From Acetobacteraceae bacterium (GTDB lineage Bacteria > Pseudomonadota > Alphaproteobacteria > Acetobacterales > Acetobacteraceae): a stretch of 64,000 nucleotides of DNA. This document shows, piece by piece, positions 50,896-62,703 of the stretch. The stretch lies in the NCBI GenBank assembly GCA_025352375.1, contig JANXTL010000028.1, forward strand, positions 1,125 through 65,124, given 5' to 3'. Numbering within the stretch: the first letter of the stretch is position 1; each line of letters opens with the position of its first letter. Under the pieces are notes generated by a model that was not told the DNA's origin, ran no database searches, and saw only the letters and a program-made list of their open reading frames with translations. Both the position numbers and the translations under genes were made by a program.

Positions 50896-50970
50896 GGGCG
50901 CGTAGCTCAGCGGGAGAGCACCTCCCTGACACGGAGGGGGTCACAGGTTCAATCCCTGTCGCGCCCACCA
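50896..50970 (+). tRNA. tRNA-Val (anticodon GAC), CCA encoded
   Basis: It folds by hand into a cloverleaf: acceptor GGGCGCG/CGCGCCC, D arm GCUC-AGCGGGA-GAGC, anticodon arm CCUCC-CUGACAC-GGAGG, T arm ACAGG-UUCAAUC-CCUGU, and discriminator A + CCA. Confidence 0.95.
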
Positions 50971-52991: not shown

Positions 52992-54137
52992 ATGGTCCAG
53001 TCCGGTCGTGTTGCCTTCGGCAAAATGGAAGAGGTCCTGTTCGGCGTGTCCGCTGCCGACGCGGTGGCCGAGCAAGCCCGAAAGCTGGGCGCGACCAGGG
53101 TATTCCTGATGGTCAGCGGCACGCTAAACCGCGAAACGCCGGAGATCGCGCGGGTGCGGGCGGCGCTGGGCAATCTATGCGCCGGGGTGTTCGACCGCAT
53201 GCCGGCCCATACTCCGCGTCAGGCCGTGGTGGCGGCGGCTAACCAGGCGCGGGAGGCTGGTGCCGACCTAATCGTCACCATCGGCGGCGGCTCGATCACC
53301 GATGGTGCCAAGACGGTGCAACTGTGCCTCGCCAACGACATCCGCACCGCCGAGAGGTTGGACGCCATCCGCCCGGGCCGGGTGTTTGCAGCGCCGACCG
53401 TGCGCCAGATCAGCGTGCCCACGACCCTGTCCGCTGGGGAGTTCAGCGCTTTGGCCGGCGTGACCGACGAGCGGACCCGGGTAAAAGAGTTGTTCGCGCA
53501 TCCATCGATCATCCCCCAGACCGTGATCCTCGACCCCGCGATGACCGTGCATACGCCGGAGTGGCTTTTTCTCTCAACCGGGATCCGCGCTGTCGATCAC
53601 TGCGTGGAGGGGTTTTGTTCGTTGGAGGCCAATCCATATGCCGACGCTCAGGCGATACGGGGGCTAACGCTGCTGACACGCGGGCTGGCGGCGGTGAAGG
53701 CCGATCCGTCGAACATACAAGCGCGGCTGGATTGCCAGATCGGGTCGTGGCTCTCGATGGGGCCGCTGGCGAGCGGTGTCCCAATGGGGGCCAGCCACGG
53801 CATCGGCTACGTGCTCGGCGCCGTGCACGACATCCCGCACGGGCACACGTCCTGCATCATGCTGCCGGCGGTGATGCGGTGGAACAAATCCGCGAACGCG
53901 GATCGGCAGGCGGAGATTGCCGCTGCGATGGGGCATCCGGGCAAGGAAGCCGGGGACGTGCTGGACGCGTTCATCGGCGGGCTGGGGATGCCGCGGAGCT
54001 TGTCGGCTGTAGGTGTTGGGGAAACCGCGTTCGCGCGTATTTCCGAGCAGGCGATGGGGACGCCCTGGATCCCGCGCAATCCGCGGAAGATCGCGGGGCC
54101 GGCGGAGGTTCGGGAGATTCTGAGGTTGGCGGGTTAG
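52992..54137 (+). CDS. Iron-containing alcohol dehydrogenase family protein (maleylacetate reductase-like), intact copy
   Basis: ATG at 52992 follows GGGAGGAAG. The GGGS.TD.AK NAD-binding motif and H-x-x-x-H metal ligands (HGIGYVLGAVHDIPHGH) are present. The track ORF start at 52071 is an antisense-of-fumC artefact. Confidence 0.85.
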   Translation: MVQSGRVAFGKMEEVLFGVSAADAVAEQARKLGATRVFLMVSGTLNRETPEIARVRAALGNLCAGVFDRMPAHTPRQAVVAAANQAREAGADLIVTIGGGSITDGAKTVQLCLANDIRTAERLDAIRPGRVFAAPTVRQISVPTTLSAGEFSALAGVTDERTRVKELFAHPSIIPQTVILDPAMTVHTPEWLFLSTGIRAVDHCVEGFCSLEANPYADAQAIRGLTLLTRGLAAVKADPSNIQARLDCQIGSWLSMGPLASGVPMGASHGIGYVLGAVHDIPHGHTSCIMLPAVMRWNKSANADRQAEIAAAMGHPGKEAGDVLDAFIGGLGMPRSLSAVGVGETAFARISEQAMGTPWIPRNPRKIAGPAEVREILRLAG

Positions 54138-54377
54138 GCTTGGTTCTGTTGCCTATGCCGTGCCCCGGCGAAGGCGGGGGCGACCATTCCGCTGGCCACA
54201 CTGACCGCGACGCGGGTCGTCAACCTGCATGATCCGATGAACAGCGACCACACGGCGGCGGGACCTTGCGGGTACGGGGACCGATAAGGCGTGAGGTGGC
54301 CCCATCCGTTGGACAGGAATCGGGGTGAGCTAAAAGAGACTCGCACCCATTGCGTGCCCCCAAACCCGCTCGGGGGG

Positions 54378-54511
54378 TTAAAAAATTCAAATCAGCGAAT
54401 TTTTTAATTCGTGGTTGAATCCCCAAGGAGAAATATCGTAACCGGACCGAAAAATTTTTTTCAGAATCTAAATGGATTTTGCTTGACAACGGGTCGTAAT
54501 TATCGATAACG
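54378..54511 (+). promoter_or_regulatory. AT-rich regulatory region of the island operon: 11-bp perfect inverted repeat, A5T7 tract, and TTGACA-N16-GATAAC promoter candidate
   Basis: TTAAAAAATTC (54378-54388) pairs with GAATTTTTTAA (54397-54407). GAAAAATTTTTTTC lies at 54449-54462, and TTGACA at 54483-54488. This is a sharp local AT-rich patch in a high-GC genome. Confidence 0.4.
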
Positions 54512-54541
54512 ATGGGCGACATCTTCAAGGTGAGGTATCCA

Positions 54542-54931
54542 ATGGCCGTGCAGACTTACCTCATTCACCTGCACGACGCGCTTCAACAGGACGATGCGGC
54601 GCGGGATGAGTTGGCGGACCTGACGATCCACACGGGTGGCTTCGTGCTGATGGCGACCGATGCGGGCTCGCTGATCGCCGCCTTAGATGATCGGCATCTG
54701 CCGGCCTTCCGGCAGCATCGTGCCGTCGCATTCTGCGGCGCGGTCAGGCTCGATCCGAACGGCGCGGCGGCGACGCGGCTGCAACAGTTGTTCGCGGCCA
54801 ACATTGCGGCCCAATTGGCGCACCGGCTACAGGCGACCTCCGCATCTGCTGATCGCGCAGGTCCGCGATACCGGCCGCTTTGTTGGCACTTGCCCGATCC
54901 CGACGGCGCCCGTGCCGCAACCAGCACTTAA
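54542..54931 (+). CDS. Island protein P0, hypothetical (129 aa)
   Basis: ATG at 54542 follows AGGTGAGG. MAVQTYLIHLHDALQQDDAARDELADLTIHTGGFVLMATDAGSLIAALDD... No recognised family. First gene of the operon. Confidence 0.55.
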   Translation: MAVQTYLIHLHDALQQDDAARDELADLTIHTGGFVLMATDAGSLIAALDDRHLPAFRQHRAVAFCGAVRLDPNGAAATRLQQLFAANIAAQLAHRLQATSASADRAGPRYRPLCWHLPDPDGARAATST

Positions 54932-54951
54932 ACCCGCCAAGGAGTAGTCAC

Positions 54952-55644
54952 ATGAGCATCGGCCAGGAGCTTTTGGACGTTCCGTTTCCCGAGATGATCT
55001 TCAAGATGGCCAACGCCATCGCCCAGGGTCAGCGCCGGTTGGACAAGACGTCAATCGACACCGCGCGCATGCTGGCGAAGGCGCGGGTATCGGTGATCCC
55101 GGAGATCTTCGAGATCGTCGAAAAGAAGAAAATTTCCGACGCGTTGGAGGCCGGTGCCGTGCTCCCGCTCGCTCCGCCGGCGGTGCCCGGCGCACCGGTA
55201 CCGGCCGTGCCCCCGGTCCCCGTCGCCGATCAGTTCACGATCGCGGTCCGCAGCGAGAGCGGCAAAGCGATCGACATGAGTCTGATGCAGGCCGGCTTAC
55301 TGCCGACATTCTATCAGTTCACGGAGTCAATCATTGAAGTGAAAATCTCTATTAGCCACCGTAGCTCGTTCCAGAGCGAATTCGAAGTGGGCGCCAGCTT
55401 GGAAGTGGCGACTGAAGCGGAGGCTCACGGTGGCTTGTTCGGCTTCGGTGGTTCGGCTTCGGTTTCCACCACCTTCGCATCGCACGTGAACTACAAGAGC
55501 TCTTCCAGCTATTCGTACTCGGCCGAGGGGTCGAGCCTTTTGCGCACCACGCTCAAGCCGTTGCCGCCTCCGGCGCGGCTGATCCCGCGCATCGTCACGA
55601 TTGATGCGACGGTCAACCCGATCAAGGTGACGTTCAATGGCTGA
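54952..55644 (+). CDS. Island protein P1, paralogue family member (230 aa)
   Basis: AAGGAG lies 7 nt upstream, and GC3 is high. It shares three sequence blocks with P3 and P4. It carries an extra Pro/Ala-rich insert and a Gly/Ser-rich insert. Confidence 0.8.
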   Translation: MSIGQELLDVPFPEMIFKMANAIAQGQRRLDKTSIDTARMLAKARVSVIPEIFEIVEKKKISDALEAGAVLPLAPPAVPGAPVPAVPPVPVADQFTIAVRSESGKAIDMSLMQAGLLPTFYQFTESIIEVKISISHRSSFQSEFEVGASLEVATEAEAHGGLFGFGGSASVSTTFASHVNYKSSSSYSYSAEGSSLLRTTLKPLPPPARLIPRIVTIDATVNPIKVTFNG

Positions 55645-55655
55645 TCGGCCGCGCC

Positions 55656-57227
55656 ATGGCTTCGCCGCATAATCCCGAATCCTGGCGTGAGAAGAGGCGC
55701 CAGGAGAGCCGAGCCGAGGCCCGGCTGCGGCAAGTGCGGCCGCCGCTTCGTGGGGATGGTCAGGCGTTATCCCGGCCGGGCACGCCTGACCGCCGGCAGC
55801 CTAAAATGCCGCCCCTTGCGTCGGCGGCGCACAGCGCTCCGCGGCCGCCCCTTCTGATGCCGAACCTGCGCGTCAGACCGTCTGGTGCAATACCCCTGCC
55901 GGCACGGGCCGCTATGCGTGCCGGGCCCCCGCTGGAGCGCGCGCTGTCTCGACCAACTGTCGCACCCAGCCAGCGGCCGCCGCCGCGCATCGCCCAGAAG
56001 CCGGAGACCAAGCCGCCTGTCGCCCGCACGAAGCGGCCGATGCAAGCCGCCGGGCCCAAAACGATCGCAATCCAGGATCGCCCGAAGCCGCCTCGACCAA
56101 CTGTCGCACCCAGCCAGCGACCGCCGCCGCGCATCGTCCAGAAACCGGAGACCAAGCCGCTTGTCGCCCGCACGAAGCGGCCGACGCAAGCTGCCGGGCC
56201 CAAAATGATCGCAACCCAGGATCGCCCAAAGCCGCCTCGGCCCAATCGACCCGCGTTGGGTCCTGCGAATTTGCATGCGACCATCGCGCGTCCGCTGTCG
56301 CCACCCCAACCGCACAAGCCCCGACCCGATTTGTCTCTACGTCATACGGGCGTGACGACCACGCCACCGCTCCCGCGCGCGGGGGGCACGCCCAGACCGC
56401 GGGACTTGCAAGCGGTGCGCGACAATCGGCCACCGCCGGTACGCCGGACTGGCCGCGTCGGTGCCCTTGCCAAGCCGCGCGTCCGCGAAGGCGAGTTGTC
56501 CGCGCATCTTCCCTGGCTGCGCGCCGCCGGCCCAACGTTGGAGACGGCGTCCGGCCGACGCGTGATTCTGCATGGCCTGACCGAGGTTTTGCCCGCCACC
56601 GGCTCAGCACTCGCGTTGCTCCACCGCGCGGCGCTGGGCGGGGACGAGGGCAACGCCAGCATATGGCTCGACCTCGAAGCCGGAACGGACCATCTGGGGG
56701 GGGCTCTCGATGACGTTATCGCGCAACACGCGGCTCACGGCGTTTATACGATCCTGCACGGCGGACCCACCCATCGGGCCGCGCACCGTTATGCCGATGA
56801 GCCGGCCGTCCTGTTTTCCCTACCCACTGCCCCGCACGAGCGCGTCACGGCGACGCTGGATGTTGTCCGCGCGGCCCATCCCCGTGCGGTGGTGTTGATC
56901 CCGGCCGGCACAGCGCCAGCCGCGCACCATCGGCCCGGCGCTGTGCTGCGCTGGGATTTGGGAGAAGTCGGCGGCGGGGCAATGGCCGCCGTCGAGCGGA
57001 TGCACCACTGTCCCGTGATGCTCGTCTGGCATCCCGCGCGCGGCAGCCCGATGGCCAACGAACGAATAATTCAGGCCGCTGGGCGGGGCGGCATTGGCTG
57101 GATCGCTCACGATCCTGAACCCTGGATGCAACATCGCTACGGCGTGCCGGAACTCAGTCGGGCCGCGCACGCCGTACTGCGAGGCCTGATCTTGAGTGAC
57201 CATTTCGCCACCCCTCACGCCGCTTGA
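55656..57227 (+). CDS. Island protein P2: basic/proline-rich repeat protein with a degenerate glycoside hydrolase (GH5/TIM-barrel)-like C-terminal domain
   Basis: 523 aa. The N-terminal ~270 aa are Pro/Arg/Lys-rich with two 48-aa repeats, and GC3 supports this frame. The C-terminal ~250 aa follow the GH5 block order, but the catalytic NEP and nucleophile Glu are not conserved. The start codon is uncertain. Confidence 0.6.
   Translation: MASPHNPESWREKRRQESRAEARLRQVRPPLRGDGQALSRPGTPDRRQPKMPPLASAAHSAPRPPLLMPNLRVRPSGAIPLPARAAMRAGPPLERALSRPTVAPSQRPPPRIAQKPETKPPVARTKRPMQAAGPKTIAIQDRPKPPRPTVAPSQRPPPRIVQKPETKPLVARTKRPTQAAGPKMIATQDRPKPPRPNRPALGPANLHATIARPLSPPQPHKPRPDLSLRHTGVTTTPPLPRAGGTPRPRDLQAVRDNRPPPVRRTGRVGALAKPRVREGELSAHLPWLRAAGPTLETASGRRVILHGLTEVLPATGSALALLHRAALGGDEGNASIWLDLEAGTDHLGGALDDVIAQHAAHGVYTILHGGPTHRAAHRYADEPAVLFSLPTAPHERVTATLDVVRAAHPRAVVLIPAGTAPAAHHRPGAVLRWDLGEVGGGAMAAVERMHHCPVMLVWHPARGSPMANERIIQAAGRGGIGWIAHDPEPWMQHRYGVPELSRAAHAVLRGLILSDHFATPHAA
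55948..56235 (+). repeat. Tandem 144-bp coding repeat, 2 copies
   Basis: CTCGACCAACTGTCGCACCCAGCCAGCG... starts at 55948 and again at 56092. The copies differ by a handful of substitutions and encode RPTVAPSQRPPPRI.QKPETKP.VARTKRP.QAAGPK.IA.QDRPKPP. Confidence 0.9.
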
Positions 57228-57245
57228 ACATTAAGGAACATCGCA

Positions 57246-57830
57246 ATGTCGATCGGCCAGGAGCTTCTGGACATCCCGTTCGCGGATATGGTGCGCAACC
57301 TCGCCGCCGCGGTCGCCGAGGGGCAGTTGTCGCTGGATCGGGCGTCCATCGAGACGCTGCGCTTCCTCGCCGACGATGCCAACGGCATCGCGATCATCCC
57401 CGAAATCGTCGAGACGATCGTGCCCAGCACGATGTCCACCTCGATCAACGGCGTTGCGACCGACATCGCCACCGTCACCGTCAGGTCGCAACCAGCGGCG
57501 GCGGTAAAAATGTCGCTGCTTCAGGCCGGCATCCTACCCACCTTCTATCAGTTCACCGAGGCCAGCATCGAGGTGAAACTGTCGATTACGATGAAGCGCA
57601 CCGGCGATGCCGAGACGGCAGGCAGGCCCGGCTTCGCAGGCCGCGGCGTGATGGTCCACGGGTCGACCGTAAACTACCGGTCAGCCAATACCTACTCCTA
57701 CACCGCCGAGGGATCGAGCGTGTTGCGCATCACCATGCGTCCGGTACCGCCGCCGGTGCGGCTGCTCCCCGACATCGTCAGCGTCAATGCGACCGTAACG
57801 CCGCCCATCATCAATCGCACGCCGCGCTGA
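57246..57830 (+). CDS. Island protein P3, paralogue family member (194 aa)
   Basis: AAGGAA lies upstream. It starts MSIGQELLDIPF like P1, and shares LLQAGILPTFYQFTE..IEVK and YSYTAEGSSVLRITMRPVPPP blocks. Confidence 0.8.
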   Translation: MSIGQELLDIPFADMVRNLAAAVAEGQLSLDRASIETLRFLADDANGIAIIPEIVETIVPSTMSTSINGVATDIATVTVRSQPAAAVKMSLLQAGILPTFYQFTEASIEVKLSITMKRTGDAETAGRPGFAGRGVMVHGSTVNYRSANTYSYTAEGSSVLRITMRPVPPPVRLLPDIVSVNATVTPPIINRTPR

Positions 57831-57842
57831 GGGACATCGACC

Positions 57843-58217
57843 ATGGCCAACGAAGTCGATTTCTCGGAAATCCTGATCACCCCGGTCGCGACTATGATTC
57901 GCGAAATCGCGGCTGGCGTCGCTGCCGCTCAGCGCGAACTGGACCAGGCCAGCCTGCAATCCCAGGCTGACCTGCACGACAAGTTCCCCGAACTGGAACA
58001 GGCCGGCTACCAGGTGACGTGGTACCAGATTCCCGAGGTGCGGGCCGAGATGCGGATGGCCGTGCATCTGGAGCGGCAAACCCCTCAAAGCCCGCTGCGA
58101 CTATACGCGACGCCGTTCAACGCGAAGTACCGCAACGCCATGAACTTCACCGCCGACGGATCGAGCACGCTGACACTGCGCATCGTACCGGTGCCACCCA
58201 TCACGCCGGTGAAGTGA
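57843..58217 (+). CDS. Island protein P4, short divergent paralogue (124 aa)
   Basis: GAGGGA lies upstream. It retains degenerate versions of all three blocks (…AAGVAAAQRELDQASL…, LEQAGYQVTWYQIPEVRAEMRMAV, FTADGSSTLTLRIVPVPP). Confidence 0.7.
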   Translation: MANEVDFSEILITPVATMIREIAAGVAAAQRELDQASLQSQADLHDKFPELEQAGYQVTWYQIPEVRAEMRMAVHLERQTPQSPLRLYATPFNAKYRNAMNFTADGSSTLTLRIVPVPPITPVK

Positions 58218-58233
58218 GCAGGAGAGCCACACC

Positions 58234-58740
58234 ATGCCGATCAGCATAAATTTCAACCCTGGCAAGATCAGCGACGTGCAACTGCGCGATCCCGTGTTCG
58301 TGAAGACGCAATTCGACACGGCCGTCCGCGCGGTCGCCGAACGCGATCAGGAGTTGGTCCTGGTCAATGCGCGCCAATTGGCTGCTGCCACCGAATTGCT
58401 AACGGTGAAGCAGGCGCTCGCTACGGAATCCTTGCGCGCTGCGGGTCTGGAAGATCAGATCAAAAGGTTTCAGACCGACGCCCCGAAGATCGCCATCCAG
58501 GAGTTGGTCACCCAGTTCAAGTCCGACGTCGACAAGATCAACCGCGATGTGCTTGCCAACCCGACGCTTGCGGGAATGCTGGTCGACAGCGTCGAGGTGG
58601 AGGTCAAGGGCGGCATCGACGTGTCTCAAGGCGTGCGGTTCTCGCAACTGCCGCATGGCGAGCTAACCGGCGCCAGCGCCAGCACCTTCCGCTTTAACCT
58701 CAAGCCAAGTGCGGTGGTGCGGATCGTCGACGATCCGTAG
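58234..58740 (+). CDS. Island protein P5, coiled-coil protein with a C-terminal module related to P1/P3/P4 (168 aa)
   Basis: AGGAGA lies upstream. The central heptad-like helix spans about residues 30-110. The C-terminal VDSVEVEVKGGI ... STFRFNLKPSAVV echoes the IEVK and LR.T.KP blocks of the paralogues. Confidence 0.7.
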   Translation: MPISINFNPGKISDVQLRDPVFVKTQFDTAVRAVAERDQELVLVNARQLAAATELLTVKQALATESLRAAGLEDQIKRFQTDAPKIAIQELVTQFKSDVDKINRDVLANPTLAGMLVDSVEVEVKGGIDVSQGVRFSQLPHGELTGASASTFRFNLKPSAVVRIVDDP

Positions 58741-58836: not shown

Positions 58837-59577
58837 CCATGCCCGGTTATGTTGAACCCGGCGATCACCCCGCACAGGTCGAAGTGGCTGTCCCCGTCCA
58901 CCGGTATCCGGGCCGTCGATGACTGCGTGGAGGGGTTTTGTTCATTGGAAGCCAACCCCTACGCCGATGCCCCGGCATTGCGCGGGCTAGAGCGTGATCG
59001 CCTGAGGTTGACTTCAACCTCGGGCGTGAATCACCCTCTCAAACAAAGGCTTAGACCATGATCCAATGCCGAGATCGCGTGCGACCTCAAACGATCATGG
59101 TCTAACGCTGCTGACGCGCGGGCTGGCGACGGTGAAGGCCGATCCGTCGAACATACAAGCGCGGCTGGATTGCCAGATCGGGTCGTGGCTCTCGATGGGG
59201 CCGCTGGCGAGCGGCGTTCCCATGGGGGCCAGCCACACGGCATAGGCTTCGTGCTCGGCGCCGTGCACGACATCCCGCACGGGCACACGTCGTGCATCGT
59301 GCTGCCGGCGGTGATGCGGTGGAACAAATCCGCGAATGCCAACCGGCAGGCGGAGGTCGCCGCCGCCATGGGGCACCCGGGGGAGGAAGCCGGCGACGTG
59401 CTGGACGCGTTCATCGGCGGGCTGGGGATGCCTCGGAGCTTGTCGGCTGTTGGCGTGGGCGAGGGCGCGTTTGGGCGGATCTCCGAGCAGGCGATGGGGA
59501 CGCCCTGGATCCCGCGCAATCCGCGGAAGATCGCGGGGCCGGCGGAGGTTCGGGAGATTCTGAGGTTGGCGGGTTAG
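58837..59577 (+). pseudogene. Displaced, decayed 3' portion of the Fe-ADH/maleylacetate reductase-like gene (copy B)
   Basis: It is collinear with 53514-54137 and lacks the 5' ~60% of the gene. It is split by the 113-bp MITE. A 2-nt insertion (AC, about 59237) creates an in-frame TAG at 59243-59245. The last 97 nt are identical to copy A. Confidence 0.9.
58990..59102. mobile_element. 113-bp MITE, copy 2 (opposite orientation to copy 1), with TA target-site duplication
   Basis: It is flanked by TA at 58988-89 and 59103-04. The empty site GGGC-TA-ACGCTG is preserved in the intact paralogue at about 53666-53677. Confidence 0.9.
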
Positions 59578-60608
59578 GGCGGCGACAACCGGCTGCTCGC
59601 CCAGTCCGCGGCCTCGGCGACCACCAGGTCGGGATCGGTGGTTAACTGCCGAGCGACCGGGAGCAGCGAGGGGTCGGCGGAATTGCCGATGGCGATCAGG
59701 ACGTTGCGCACGAAGCGGTTGCGGCCGATGCGTTTGATGGGGGAGCCGGTGAATGTCCGGCGGAAGGAGGCGTCGTCCAGGGTGGCCAGTTCTTGCAGCC
59801 TTGGCGCCGTCAGGTCATCCCGCGGTCGCAGCTTTTCGTGCGGTGTGGGTTTCGCAAAACGATTCCACGGGCACACCGCGAGGCAGTCGTCGCAACCGTA
59901 GATGCGGTTGCCCATCAGGGGGCGCAGGTCCAGTGGGATCGGCCCCTGGTGCTCGATGGTTAGGTAGGAAATGCAGCGGGTCGCGTCCAGCCGATATGGG
60001 GCCGGAAAGGCGTCGGTGGGGCAGATTTTTAGGCATCGTGTGCAGGTGCCGCAGCGGTCCTGGTGCGGGGTGTCGGGGGTCAGTTCCAGCGTGGTATAAA
60101 TTTCGCCAAGAAATAACCACGACCCGTGCGTTCGGGAAACCAAATTGGTGTGCTTGCCCTGCCAGCCGAGCCCGGCTTTCTCCGCCAGCGGTTTTTCCAT
60201 CACTGGCGCGGTGTCGACGAAGACTTTGACCGCTGGCCCGAAGCGCGAGACCACGAATTGGGCGAGGTGCTTCAGCTTGCCTTTCACCAAATCGTGGTAG
60301 TCGCGGTTGCGGGCGTAGACCGAGACGGTGCCTCGGTCGGGTTGGCTTAGCGACGCCAAGGGGTCGTCGGACGGCGCGTAGGACAGGCCGAGGGCGATGA
60401 CACTCTTAGCCTCCGCCCACAACGCTTTGGGGTGGGATCGTTGCTCGGCGCGGTCGGCGAGCCAGCCCATGTCGCCGTGCTGCCCGGCGGCGAGGAAGGC
60501 GCCGAGCCGGGTGCGGGCCTCGGGGGCGAGGTCGGCGGTGGCGAAGCCGATGGCGTCGAAGCCTAGGGAGAGGGCCTTGTCGCGGATCAGGGGGCGGGGG
60601 TCGGTCAT
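59574..60608 (-). CDS. queG: Epoxyqueuosine reductase
   Basis: From [22 protein letters not shown]... It has two 4Fe-4S motifs ([21 protein letters not shown]) and a HEAT-like C-terminus. Its stop overlaps the pseudogene stop (TTAG). Confidence 0.9.
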
Positions 60609-60785
60609 GCGGGGGGTGTTGTCGCATTGGGGACGGGGTAGGTCGAGGTAGTGGCCGAGGACGAACCGCGTTCCACCCAACCCTTGCCACGGTGCCGAGC
60701 GGTATGGGAATGAGTGCGGGACAACCTGCGTTGATCTGTTATGTTCTCTGCATGTTCTTCACCTGGACCCACGAGGATGATGCGG

Positions 60786-61541
60786 ATGTCGAAGATCGAG
60801 TGGACGGACGTTACATGGAACCCTGTCGCCGGCTGTACGGTGGCGACCGCGGGCTGCACGAACTGCTATGCCATGCGGATGGCCGCTCGGCTCGAGGCGA
60901 TGGGCACCGCGAAGTATCAGGGCTTAACCCGAAAGAGCGGCGAACGATACGTCTGGACGGGCACAGTCGTGCAGGACGAGAAAGCGCTTGCTGCACCGCT
61001 AGCTTGGCGTAAGCCGCGCACGGTGTTCGTCAACAGTATGTCCGACCTCTTCCACCCGTCGGTGGAGCTGGAGTTCATCGCCAAAGTCTGGGAAGTCATG
61101 AAGGCGACCCCACACCACACCTACCAGATACTGACGAAGCGTCCAGAGCGGATGCGCGAGGTTCTGTCGCGTTCGGATTTTCATGTTCTGCCGAACGTGT
61201 GGATCGGCACCAGCGTCGAGGACAGTGCGGTCCTCGATCGTATCGACGAACTACGTCGTACACCAGCCGCAGTCCGATTCGTTTCCTTCGAGCCGTTGAT
61301 TGGCAGCATCGCGGGCGCCGACTTGCAGAACATTGACTGGGCGATCATCGGCGGAGAGAGTGGACCAAGATCGCGCATAATGCTGCCCGAATGGGTGTCA
61401 GAGATTGAGGAGCTATGCCGCGGCGTTGGCGCAGCCTTCTTCTTCAAGCAGTGGGGCGGCCGTAACAAGAAAGCCGCGGGCCGCACATTAAACGGCCGTA
61501 TCTATGATGAAATGCCTACCTCCCAGCGTATTTCTTTATGA
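60786..61541 (+). CDS. DUF5131 (phage Gp37/Gp68) family three-Cys-motif protein
   Basis: MSKIEWTDVTWNPVAGCTVATAGCTNCYA has the motif C17-x6-C24-x2-C27. The family-typical SMSDLFH and WAIIGGESGP blocks are present. GC is visibly lower than in the flanks. Confidence 0.85.
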   Translation: MSKIEWTDVTWNPVAGCTVATAGCTNCYAMRMAARLEAMGTAKYQGLTRKSGERYVWTGTVVQDEKALAAPLAWRKPRTVFVNSMSDLFHPSVELEFIAKVWEVMKATPHHTYQILTKRPERMREVLSRSDFHVLPNVWIGTSVEDSAVLDRIDELRRTPAAVRFVSFEPLIGSIAGADLQNIDWAIIGGESGPRSRIMLPEWVSEIEELCRGVGAAFFFKQWGGRNKKAAGRTLNGRIYDEMPTSQRISL

Positions 61542-62454
61542 CGGAAGTTACCCCCTTCTTGATGAGGGCAATTGCCTTTACGCTTGCGCTATTCGACATG
61601 CAGAACAGCGAGAAAATCTTCGAGGTCCGATCGTTCAGCAGCGGCAGCGGATCCGAAACGTACGAAAATATCGTCTTCAGCCGATCCTGCGCGTAACACT
61701 CGATTTGATCGACGTTAAATCTCTTGCTGCCTGTAGTGACGGGCTGATCGAACAGCCCCCCCTGGACAAGACGGACATTATAAATGTCGGTGCGCCAAGC
61801 GGTCGAGCCAAAAACTTCGTCGAGCGCGTGCTGCTTGTTCTCGTCGACCTTCGCGAAGTCGCCCGCCAGCTGTCGGTTCACGGCGCTTGTCGGGAAAAGA
61901 TACCAAACGTCCACAGCGCGGGTCTCCGCTAGCAGGTTCAACGTTTCCCACTTCACAGACATTCCAAATGGATCGAGGAAGACAATTGCACGATGCGAGC
62001 CGCGTCCATCGCGCTGCTTGGACCATGGCGGTTCGCCGAATATTTCCCTCAGCTTGGCGTTTGCTTCACCACGGAACGGTCTGATATTCCGGTTTGGGTG
62101 TGCTGCCGCGATCTCTTCCAAACGACGAAACCGGTCTCGGTTTTCCTCGACGAAGACGAGGCGTTTGAAATGTGGATCGACGTCAAGTGCGCGCAGCACC
62201 GACCCAGCAAGATCGACCGTCTCTTCCCCCAAGGGCTCACCCTCGAAAAGGCCACCGGTGGCGCGATCGATACGGCGGGACCCGCTACCCGCAAACGCAT
62301 CTATGTACCAGAGTTCAAACGGCTGCTGCGGTGTTGGCTTGTTCTTCAGAGCCCCCGTGTAGAATTTGAGATAGTCGTGGACAGCATCGAGCTTGACCTC
62401 GGTCCAAGCACCTCCGAACCGATGCCCCTGATCTGAATCTGCTGACCTTGCCAT
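61516..62454 (-). CDS. tcmP: Three-Cys-motif partner protein TcmP
   Basis: From MARSADSDQGHRFGGAWTEVKLDAVHDYLKFY... with YIDAFAGSG, FLDPFG and WYLFP blocks, as in TIGR-defined TcmP (recollection). It is convergent with the DUF5131 gene and overlaps it by 26 nt. Confidence 0.8.
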   Translation of the reverse strand: MARSADSDQGHRFGGAWTEVKLDAVHDYLKFYTGALKNKPTPQQPFELWYIDAFAGSGSRRIDRATGGLFEGEPLGEETVDLAGSVLRALDVDPHFKRLVFVEENRDRFRRLEEIAAAHPNRNIRPFRGEANAKLREIFGEPPWSKQRDGRGSHRAIVFLDPFGMSVKWETLNLLAETRAVDVWYLFPTSAVNRQLAGDFAKVDENKQHALDEVFGSTAWRTDIYNVRLVQGGLFDQPVTTGSKRFNVDQIECYAQDRLKTIFSYVSDPLPLLNDRTSKIFSLFCMSNSASVKAIALIKKGVTSVIKKYAGR

Positions 62455-62703
62455 GTGTTTATCACTCTGCTTTTGAGCATCTGCGGTTTGGATGCATCGT
62501 TCGACGGTCGGACAAGGACCGCTGCACCTTATGTCCCGTTTCGATAGCATAGCGCGAATAGTTTTTCAACCATCGGTAGCATGAAGCGCCCGGACAGCCA
62601 AAGGTCCGATCAAACACCCAGCCCGTCCCCCTCCCGCTTGTTGCCTCCGGCAAGCGAACGTCGAATACTGCGTCCCGCGACCAACACCAATGGAGGAAGA
62701 CCC

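Follow-up and report, generated by a model that had tools for sequence, protein, structure and literature searches.

What does a compact set of genes encode when it is built around several copies of one small protein that carries no familiar motif? The locus that raises this question lies in a 64,000-nucleotide stretch of an Acetobacteraceae bacterium (contig JANXTL010000028.1 of assembly GCA_025352375.1), which as a whole is referred to here as the window, and it consists of six co-directional open reading frames (ORFs), P0 to P5, at 54542-58740 on the + strand. A previous examination of the window from its letters alone (the sequence-only reading) had singled out these genes as an operon that would build a structure rather than a metabolic pathway. 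Based on our results, we propose that the cassette encodes a beta-rich, hetero-oligomeric assembly associated with the envelope, whose partner is a pseudo-enzyme that binds glycan, and we put the probability of this reading at about one in three. The operon, the paralogy of three of its products, the co-conservation of its genes, the glycoside hydrolase family 5 (GH5) fold of P2 together with its catalytic loss, the fusions of family members to other domains, the absence of export signals and the depletion of cysteine are all directly supported.

Paralogous subunits and their distribution

The six ORFs are separated by gaps of only 20, 11, 18, 12 and 16 nt, and a purine-rich, AGGAG-like Shine-Dalgarno (SD) sequence precedes five of them, P2 being the exception; the operon set out by the sequence-only reading (co-directional ORFs with gaps of 11-20 nt, mostly preceded by an SD) is thus exact in its coordinates and lengths. 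The same six genes were called independently on metagenome contigs with an identical locus. The products are as follows.

54542..54931, + strand: P0, 129 amino acids (aa), with a conserved alpha/beta core of about 94 aa and a normal cysteine content
54952..55644, + strand: P1, 230 aa, paralogue 1, with an N-terminal helix, beta strands, and Pro/Ala-rich and Gly/Ser-rich insertions
55656-57227, + strand: P2, whole ORF, 523 aa
55656..56501, + strand: N-terminal region of P2, basic, Pro-rich and predicted from its composition to be disordered
56502..57227, + strand: C-terminal GH5-fold domain of P2, with both catalytic glutamates lost and profile matches to PDB cellulases
57246..57830, + strand: P3, 194 aa, paralogue 2 (BLASTP to P1; AlphaFold2 (AF2) model)
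57843..58217, + strand: P4, 124 aa, paralogue 3 and minimal form of the family (BLASTP to P3; hhalign)
58234..58740, + strand: P5, 168 aa, a cysteine-free coiled coil (PDB coiled-coil matches, heptad analysis)

P1 and P3 align over their full length with 41% identity (BLASTP, E=2e-46), P3 and P4 are linked at E=4e-13, and hhalign joins the profile of the P4 orthologues to that of P1/P3 with a probability of 99.9% (E=7e-33). Judged on these alignments, the suspected paralogy of P1, P3 and P4 is well above chance, and the three sequence blocks that had been quoted for them are all present. P1 differs from P3 chiefly by two inserts, one of 22 aa rich in Pro/Ala and one rich in Gly/Ser/Ala, so that the Pro/Ala- and Gly/Ser-rich insertions and deletions thought to set the paralogues apart are real in this pair; a variable hairpin region is absent from P4. 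Long P4-type forms (for example L019:10659-11315 and L036:9579-10253) end in a conserved domain of 70-95 aa, with the pattern '..NFN..R.WYVLQY....VVAVDD.TG.V', which occurs in Acidobacteriota, Chloroflexota, Actinomycetota and Thaumarchaeota and which the P4 of the window does not have. This extension has no match in the PDB, and a homology with P5 was considered and no relation was found.

The last gene is only partly what it had been taken for. Its coiled coil holds: the P5 profile finds nothing in the PDB other than generic coiled coils (best E 0.0011), and the hydrophobicity of its heptad a/d positions is 0.70 against a background of 0.47. The proposal that it ends in blocks related to the paralogues does not: BLASTP gives E=0.52, hhalign gives probabilities of 1.9% and 2.2%, and a stretch of just 14 columns can be aligned ('S.LRFNLKP' against 'GSS.LR.T.KP'), so that we reject a homology between P5 and the paralogue family. 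Comparison of orthologues does give P5 a conserved, beta-rich C-terminal domain.

The cassette is widespread. P3 has 796 homologues, and at 50% identity the paralogue family falls into 954 clusters. When one genome per species was scanned, 73 loci were obtained, on all of which hidden Markov models of five protein families were mapped. These loci are found in Burkholderiales (Rubrivivax, Xenophilus, Polaromonas, Hydrogenophaga, Rhizobacter and Giesbergeria), in further bacteria (Plastoroseomonas, Nevskia, Acidobacteriota, Chloroflexota, Eremiobacterota, Frankia, Actinoplanes, Solirubrobacteraceae, Nitrospira, Bacteroidota, Balneolales and Amphritea) and in archaea, as metagenome-assembled genomes (MAGs) of Nitrosopolaris (Thaumarchaeota) and of Halobacteria. 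A first class of architecture, to which 52 of the 73 loci belong, including that of the window, runs in the order P0, a P1-type protein, one to three P3-type proteins, a P4-type protein and often a coiled-coil protein, and is seen in Burkholderiales, Acetobacteraceae, Acidobacteriota, Chloroflexota, Eremiobacterota, Actinomycetota and Thaumarchaeota; the genes that had been regarded as a conserved unit around a paralogous family do therefore co-occur elsewhere. P0, which has no match in Pfam, NCBIfam or the PDB, has orthologues at 52 of the 73 loci and always lies directly 5' of the P1-type paralogue. The gene for a GH5-like protein stands between P1 and P3, or downstream, in class I, and it is present within 10 kb in 29 of the 34 P0-containing loci with complete flanks, versus 0 of 7 loci without P0. 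The second class (Amphritea, Bacteroidota, Myxococcota, gammaproteobacterial MAGs, Balneolales and some Chloroflexia) has neither P0 nor a GH5-like gene; it contains five to six members of the family together with a small TPR protein, and both its coiled-coil protein and a P4-type protein end in PASTA. Examples are L064:7173-17318, L063:7415-15708, L083:2384-14260 and L084:3912-10600, which also encode a protein of about 360 aa and whose remaining proteins have no Pfam match. The number of paralogues per locus ranges from three to seven.

The paralogue types have not been blended over this distance. P1 orthologues from Burkholderiales, Plastoroseomonas and Blastocatellia are 65-82% identical, and in a Blastocatellia MAG one gene shares 65% identity with P1 and 47% with P3, while a second shares 55% with P3 and 42% with P1. 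P1-, P3- and P4-type proteins form separate orthologous lines, in a fixed order, from Proteobacteria to Acidobacteriota, Chloroflexota, Actinomycetota and Thaumarchaeota. Because the three types are kept separately and in fixed order across phyla, an assembly of several subunits is favoured over a pathway, in line with what the sequence-only reading had suggested. The possibility that the genes are a decaying or spurious insert was considered as well, and is ruled out by the 60-80% identity of orthologues across classes of Proteobacteria and by conservation into archaea.

Searches against known families gave little to name these proteins by. P0, P1, P3, P4 and P5 have nothing beyond noise in Pfam, NCBIfam, PADLOC or PHROGs, and profiles of the paralogue family have no match in the PDB. 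Apart from the fused domains described below, orthologues and distant relatives scanned in these family collections likewise gave nothing usable. The orthologues that were looked up are named 'hypothetical' or 'uncharacterized', except for one with a 'DUF2589' label in UniProt, and literature on DUF2589, PF11655 and Trypco2 turned up no functional study of the paralogue family. AF2 monomer models were obtained for P3 (predicted local distance difference test (pLDDT) 66; helix 12-42, then beta hairpins) and P4 (pLDDT 70; helix 15-47, three strands and a 'VPVPPITPVK' end), and in both an antiparallel sheet comes after a long helix. A structural match of the paralogues to a characterised family was looked for in these models, and Foldseek found none at E<=0.001 (P3 against the PDB; P4 against the PDB and BFVD). 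The best BFVD match of the P4 model, a 148-aa viral protein (A0A516L4Y6; probability 0.91, TM-score 0.52, E 0.22), is non-significant. The best-conserved motifs of the family, 'GQELLDVP' at the N-terminus and 'N.Y....Y..EGSS', are the lowest-confidence parts of both models, and we read them as possible contacts between subunits. The main conserved strands alternate hydrophobic with charged or polar residues (as in 'IEVKLSITMK' and 'RAEMRMAVHLE'), a pattern that fits the wall of a barrel and fits any helix-packed sheet equally.

Fused domains, cysteine content and the envelope

If these proteins do assemble, where would they do so? None of the six proteins of the window has a transmembrane (TM) or signal-like segment (maximum KD19 1.56), nor does any of 150 family representatives. 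Walker A and HExxH motifs are likewise absent from the window proteins, and no ATPase, protease or other enzyme motif was found in the cassette, all of which agrees with the earlier observation that signal peptides, TM helices, nucleotide-binding motifs and catalytic motifs are missing from P0, P1, P3, P4 and P5. Cysteine is almost absent as well. In the family-wide count (proteins P0001-P0120, P0122-P0271 and P0329-P0447), P3 orthologues contain 1 cysteine in 23,327 residues, P4-type proteins 2 in 20,001 and P5 orthologues none, compared with 0.59% in P0, 0.86% in GH5-like proteins and 0.83% in flanking host proteins. Cysteine avoidance is typical of beta-barrel membrane proteins, of pore-forming toxins and of the subunits of secreted or surface structures. 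P0 could be a cytoplasmic assembly factor or chaperone for aggregation-prone paralogue subunits, because it has a normal cysteine content and is constantly adjacent to P1.

Further pointers to location come from relatives with additional domains. These always come after the Pro-rich 'VPVPPP' motif and are of wall-binding or extracellular types: PASTA is fused to dozens of P4-type proteins, an OmpA-like domain is seen as well (8.6e-9), LamG_3 is found in 4 of 99 distant relatives, and He_PIG, Big_13 and Big_2 fusions also occur. One family member (P0264) carries a type IV pilin head in which the C-terminal disulfide loop is present and the hydrophobic alpha1-N helix is absent. Among the roles that the sequence-only reading had left open, envelope or surface remodelling gains support from these PASTA, OmpA-like, Ig-like, LamG and pilin-head fusions. 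Elsewhere in prokaryotes, such PASTA and OmpA modules have been described as 'typically preceded by a TM segment' (PMC7159879), and by analogy the family domain may take the place of that segment.

The same fusions could be read in another way, namely that the cassette is a domesticated virus-like module whose capsid, tail or fibre-like parts are freed by lysis, which would account for binding domains on proteins that lack signal peptides. Phage virion proteins commonly carry LamG_3 and Ig-like decorations and have no signal peptide, some of the fused relatives match PHROG 'virion structural protein' families, and the best BFVD match of the P4 model has a probability of 0.91 and a TM-score of 0.52, but an E of 0.22. 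We nevertheless regard this origin as highly improbable: tblastn of P3 against 50,697 phage genomes (INPHARED) gave no match, a pattern scan of IMG/VR found no family locus, the PHROG matches are limited to 1-3 of 99 members and point to the fused ends and not to the core, and no terminase, portal, integrase or lysis gene lies near any inspected locus.

The absence of signal peptides and cysteine, together with the models, also brings to mind the Pepco proteins (Trypco1/2), which are of about 117 aa, begin with a basal amphipathic helix, continue with barrel strands and end in a Pro/charge-rich tail, pre-assemble as barrels of 9-10 subunits and kill after proteolytic trimming (bioRxiv 10.1101/2025.11.14.688446). 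On this explanation, a triggered barrel would permeabilise the cytoplasmic membrane, leading to cell death or abortive infection or, in the manner of a holin, to release of the GH5-like protein. P4, with its 124 aa, seems to show the same order of elements in its monomer model (pLDDT 70), the main strands alternate hydrophobic and charged residues, the proteins are cysteine-free, and self-insertion would account both for the variety of envelopes and for the lack of a signal peptide; one of 99 distant relatives even matches Trypco2 weakly (E=8e-4). However, P1, P3, P4 and the other 98 relatives do not match Trypco1/2, other, evidently spurious matches occur at similar E, and three to seven distinct paralogues per locus are foreign to Pepco. 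No protease, STAND/NTPase or sensor gene lies in or beside the cassette in the window or in Rubrivivax; at one gammaproteobacterial locus a trypsin-PDZ gene is present 4.5 kb downstream, but it is not conserved. The sole PADLOC-DB 2.0 match in the window, PD-Lambda-2_A for P4 (E 0.0043), is weak, such matches recur in 6 of 87 P4-type relatives without reaching significance (best E 0.003), and PD-T4-6 matches among relatives are attributable to their PASTA ends. The neighbours of the cassette vary between genomes and are metabolic or housekeeping genes, with no defence islands and no mobility, phage, plasmid-transfer or defence genes near the inspected loci, and the plasmid search returned only a copy on a Sphaerotilus megaplasmid, amid metabolic genes. 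A Pepco-like pore thus seems unlikely to us, and the role in phage defence that had been thought plausible for this locus finds no backing in a PADLOC match of substance, a defence-island setting or a protease or NTPase partner.

The GH5-like partner and the proposed assembly

P2 is the one product of the cassette whose fold can be named. It had been described as Pro-rich with a probably inactive glycosidase-like domain, and both halves of that description are borne out. Its first 268 aa contain 22% Pro and 16% Arg, with a pI of 12, and the Pro/Arg-rich region includes a tandem repeat of 144 bp (48 aa) at 55948-56242, in which 55948-56098 and 56092-56242 are 93% identical. In Plastoroseomonas arctica, the assembly is broken inside the P2 gene, so that P0-P1 close one contig and P2-P5 open another, and repeats of the P2 type are probably the cause. 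The profile of the C-terminal domain, built from 18 orthologues, matches PDB cellulases (4hty, 6.5e-16; 8bn7, 6.8e-14; 2cks, 2.7e-10), and the Blastocatellia orthologue L019:7583-9787 matches Pfam Cellulase PF00150 at 3e-12 (47 bits against a cut-off of 23.5 bits). The P2 family was assembled from the fetched loci, as low-complexity word matches dominated a direct homologue search with the C-terminal domain, which yielded a single protein.

GH5 enzymes (clan GH-A) depend for catalysis on two residues, an acid/base Glu in the NEP motif and a nucleophile Glu on strand 7. The P2 of the window keeps the GH5 strand motifs, including the Trp of beta8 ('IGW'), and has lost both of these residues: where active relatives have 'LFNEPH' it reads 'LFSLPTAPHE' (TAP), and where L019 has 'FVTEWGG' and L056 'FAGEWGG' it reads 'PVMLV-WHP'. 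From its residues, then, the C-terminal domain is a catalytically dead GH5 fold. The acid/base, the nucleophile or both are lost in most GH5-like orthologues, and a few lineages keep both Glu; the NEP and the EWG nucleophile are both retained in L056:15274-17226 (the MAG assigned to Nitrosopolaris, Thaumarchaeota) and L025:12863-15571 (a Syntrophobacterales MAG), whose GH5-like partners may be active enzymes. The Syntrophobacterales locus has in addition a second, degenerate GH5-like copy. P2 has no signal peptide, and all of the GH5-like partners carry charged or disordered N-terminal regions of 250-450 aa.

These properties of the partner are those on which a cytoplasmic scaffold or nanocompartment would draw, in which the paralogues form a shell, lattice or filament, P5 serves as scaffold and the GH5-like protein is cargo loaded through its disordered arm. 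Disordered cargo-loading domains do occur in the cargo of family 2 encapsulins, and the N-terminal arms of the GH5-like proteins, which have a normal cysteine content, resemble them. Several small paralogues with a coiled coil recall shell and scaffold systems, export signals are absent family-wide, and an apparently active GH5 is kept in some lineages (L056, L025). On the other hand, proteins that end in PASTA, OmpA-like, LamG or Ig-like domains, or in a pilin head that bears a disulfide loop, are implausible in the cytoplasm, where there is also no obvious beta-glycan substrate, and no similarity to encapsulin, BMC, gas-vesicle or R-body families appeared in Pfam, the PDB or Foldseek. Such a scaffold strikes us as improbable.

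We return to an assembly at the envelope, for which we infer that the subunits co-assemble, where they lie and how they are oriented, that P0 acts as a chaperone and that P2 binds glycan. P1, P3 and P4 would be non-redundant subunits, each with a long helix at its N-terminus, followed by a small amphipathic beta sheet and, as its exit, the Pro-rich 'VPVPPP' motif, and would co-assemble, probably with P5, into a hetero-oligomeric beta-rich structure. This structure would be located in or at the cytoplasmic membrane or the envelope, the C-termini of its subunits facing outward, and P2, through its basic disordered arm and its dead GH5 domain, would bind a beta-linked envelope glycan without cleaving it and thereby tether or target the assembly.

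Several observations weigh against this proposal. Both monomer models are mediocre (pLDDT 66 and 70) and have no Foldseek analogue, and a soluble alpha/beta protein could just as well have amphipathic strands packed by a helix. There is no evident export route, though the cassette spans diderm, monoderm and archaeal envelopes. The wall-binding fusions belong mostly to class II, which has no P0 and no GH5-like gene, and no protein of the window itself carries a wall-binding or extracellular domain. A GH5-like partner with normal cysteine and no signal peptide, moreover, fits a cytoplasmic protein.

What would follow if the proposal were correct? The cassette would then represent a new class of multi-subunit envelope apparatus that has no Sec, Tat or prepilin signal and no ATPase and that has a dedicated small partner protein, and P2 would be a clean example of a GH fold recruited as a non-catalytic binding module. 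In a bolder form, which we advance with considerable doubt, this would be a new self-assembling envelope structure common to bacteria and archaea, a signal-peptide-independent pore or stalk in which the cysteine-free paralogue core replaces a TM anchor and holds glycan- or wall-binding modules (PASTA, OmpA-like, LamG, pilin head, pseudo-GH5) outside the cytoplasmic membrane. Should the proteins form a Pepco-like pore or a cytoplasmic scaffold instead, they would extend those classes to a protease-free, multi-paralogue form. The distribution has its own significance, as it speaks of horizontal transfer across at least ten phyla, Thaumarchaeota included, and of a large family (954 clusters) missed by current annotation. 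The hypothesis can be put to a direct test, since carriers are in culture (Xenophilus aerolatus DSM 19424, Plastoroseomonas arctica LMG 28251, Amphritea spp. and Sphaerotilus sulfidivorans D-507).

Insertion site and likeness to known systems

How did the cassette come to lie in this genome? Two features beyond the genes themselves bear on this.

54139..54541, + strand: upstream non-coding region, with an A/T-rich stretch at about 54380-54480, inserted along with the genes (direct reading of the sequence)
58856..59578, + strand: degraded duplicate of the 3' part of an iron-containing alcohol dehydrogenase (Fe-ADH) gene, at the right edge of the inserted segment

The segment 54139-58855 is flanked by the intact Fe-ADH gene, which ends at 54138, and by the degraded copy of its 3' part, in which 59099-59578 is 92.5% identical to 53661-54138 (480 bp) and 58856-58989 is 77.6% identical to 53533-53666 (134 bp); gene callers place two ADH_Fe_C fragments within this copy. 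As the cassette is bordered in this way, it was inserted together with a copy of the end of its target, and it looks as though it integrated by recombination with that copy. The mobile insert envisaged by the sequence-only reading is in part upheld by this arrangement; its other part is not, as the third-position GC content (GC3) of P0-P5 (0.74-0.86) is inside the range of the flanking host genes and neither an integrase nor a transposase is present in the inserted segment. No riboswitch or other RNA family of Rfam lies within or upstream of the cassette, and a simple scan of the + strand found no convincing sigma-70 consensus promoter and no convincing terminator.

Two neighbouring features were noted. 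A tRNA-Val (GAC) gene at 50896-50970, between TamB-like and fumarase genes, is 3.2 kb upstream and off the boundary of the cassette. At 60741-62550, a DUF5131 (phage Gp37/Gp68-like) gene and a convergent partner gene of 344 aa have a GC3 of 0.64-0.71, versus 0.80-0.86 in adjoining genes; in near-identical metagenome contigs the 344-aa partner is swapped for a 148-aa ORF, and the pair is therefore strain-variable.

Four kinds of known system invite comparison with the cassette. The first is DUF2589 (PF11655), to which the sequence-only reading had likened the blocks and whose proteins have been reported in tandem clusters, as in A. fulgidus AF0414-AF0417 (PMC3949148). The likeness lies in short proteins and tandem paralogues, a resemblance that does not define the family, and the pattern of an A..AQ helix followed by strands does agree with the paralogues. 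The link could not be confirmed with the Pfam model: it has no match in P1, P3 or P4 (E<=1), in five P3 orthologues (E<=10), in 99 distant relatives (E<=0.01) or in ten class II proteins (E<=10). The five include the Plastoroseomonas arctica orthologue that UniProt names 'DUF2589 domain-containing protein', a label that was possibly scored by another Pfam release and possibly reflects a remote link. The function of DUF2589 is itself uncharacterised, and membership would not explain the cassette. The second is Pepco, which the paralogues resemble in small size, lack of a signal peptide and a likely need to oligomerise, and perhaps also in a predicted amphipathic N-terminal helix, strands and Pro-rich tail. 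They differ in that their sequences give no significant match, that neither a protease nor a sensor accompanies them and that their setting is not one of defence, and in a cassette of at least three paralogues with P0, a coiled-coil protein and a GH5-like protein.

The third comparison, with GH5 enzymes, concerns the C-terminal domain of P2 only: it shares with them the PDB profile match, the PF00150 match of one orthologue and the 'IGW' motif, and it is set apart by the lost acid/base and nucleophile Glu, the lack of a signal peptide and the basic, Pro-rich arm of 268 aa. The fourth takes in gas vesicle Gvp proteins, R-body Reb proteins, curli and Fap amyloids and type IV pilins, whose operons also hold several small, cysteine-poor paralogues with accessory proteins. 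The cassette proteins have no similarity to these in sequence or fold, and signal peptides, prepilin motifs, an ATPase and usher-type machinery are absent, although one relative of the family does bear a pilin head domain. Outside the GH5 fold, no component is tied to a described family or system. In conclusion, we place the cassette outside the known kinds of system, with a remote kinship to DUF2589 or to Pepco being possible.

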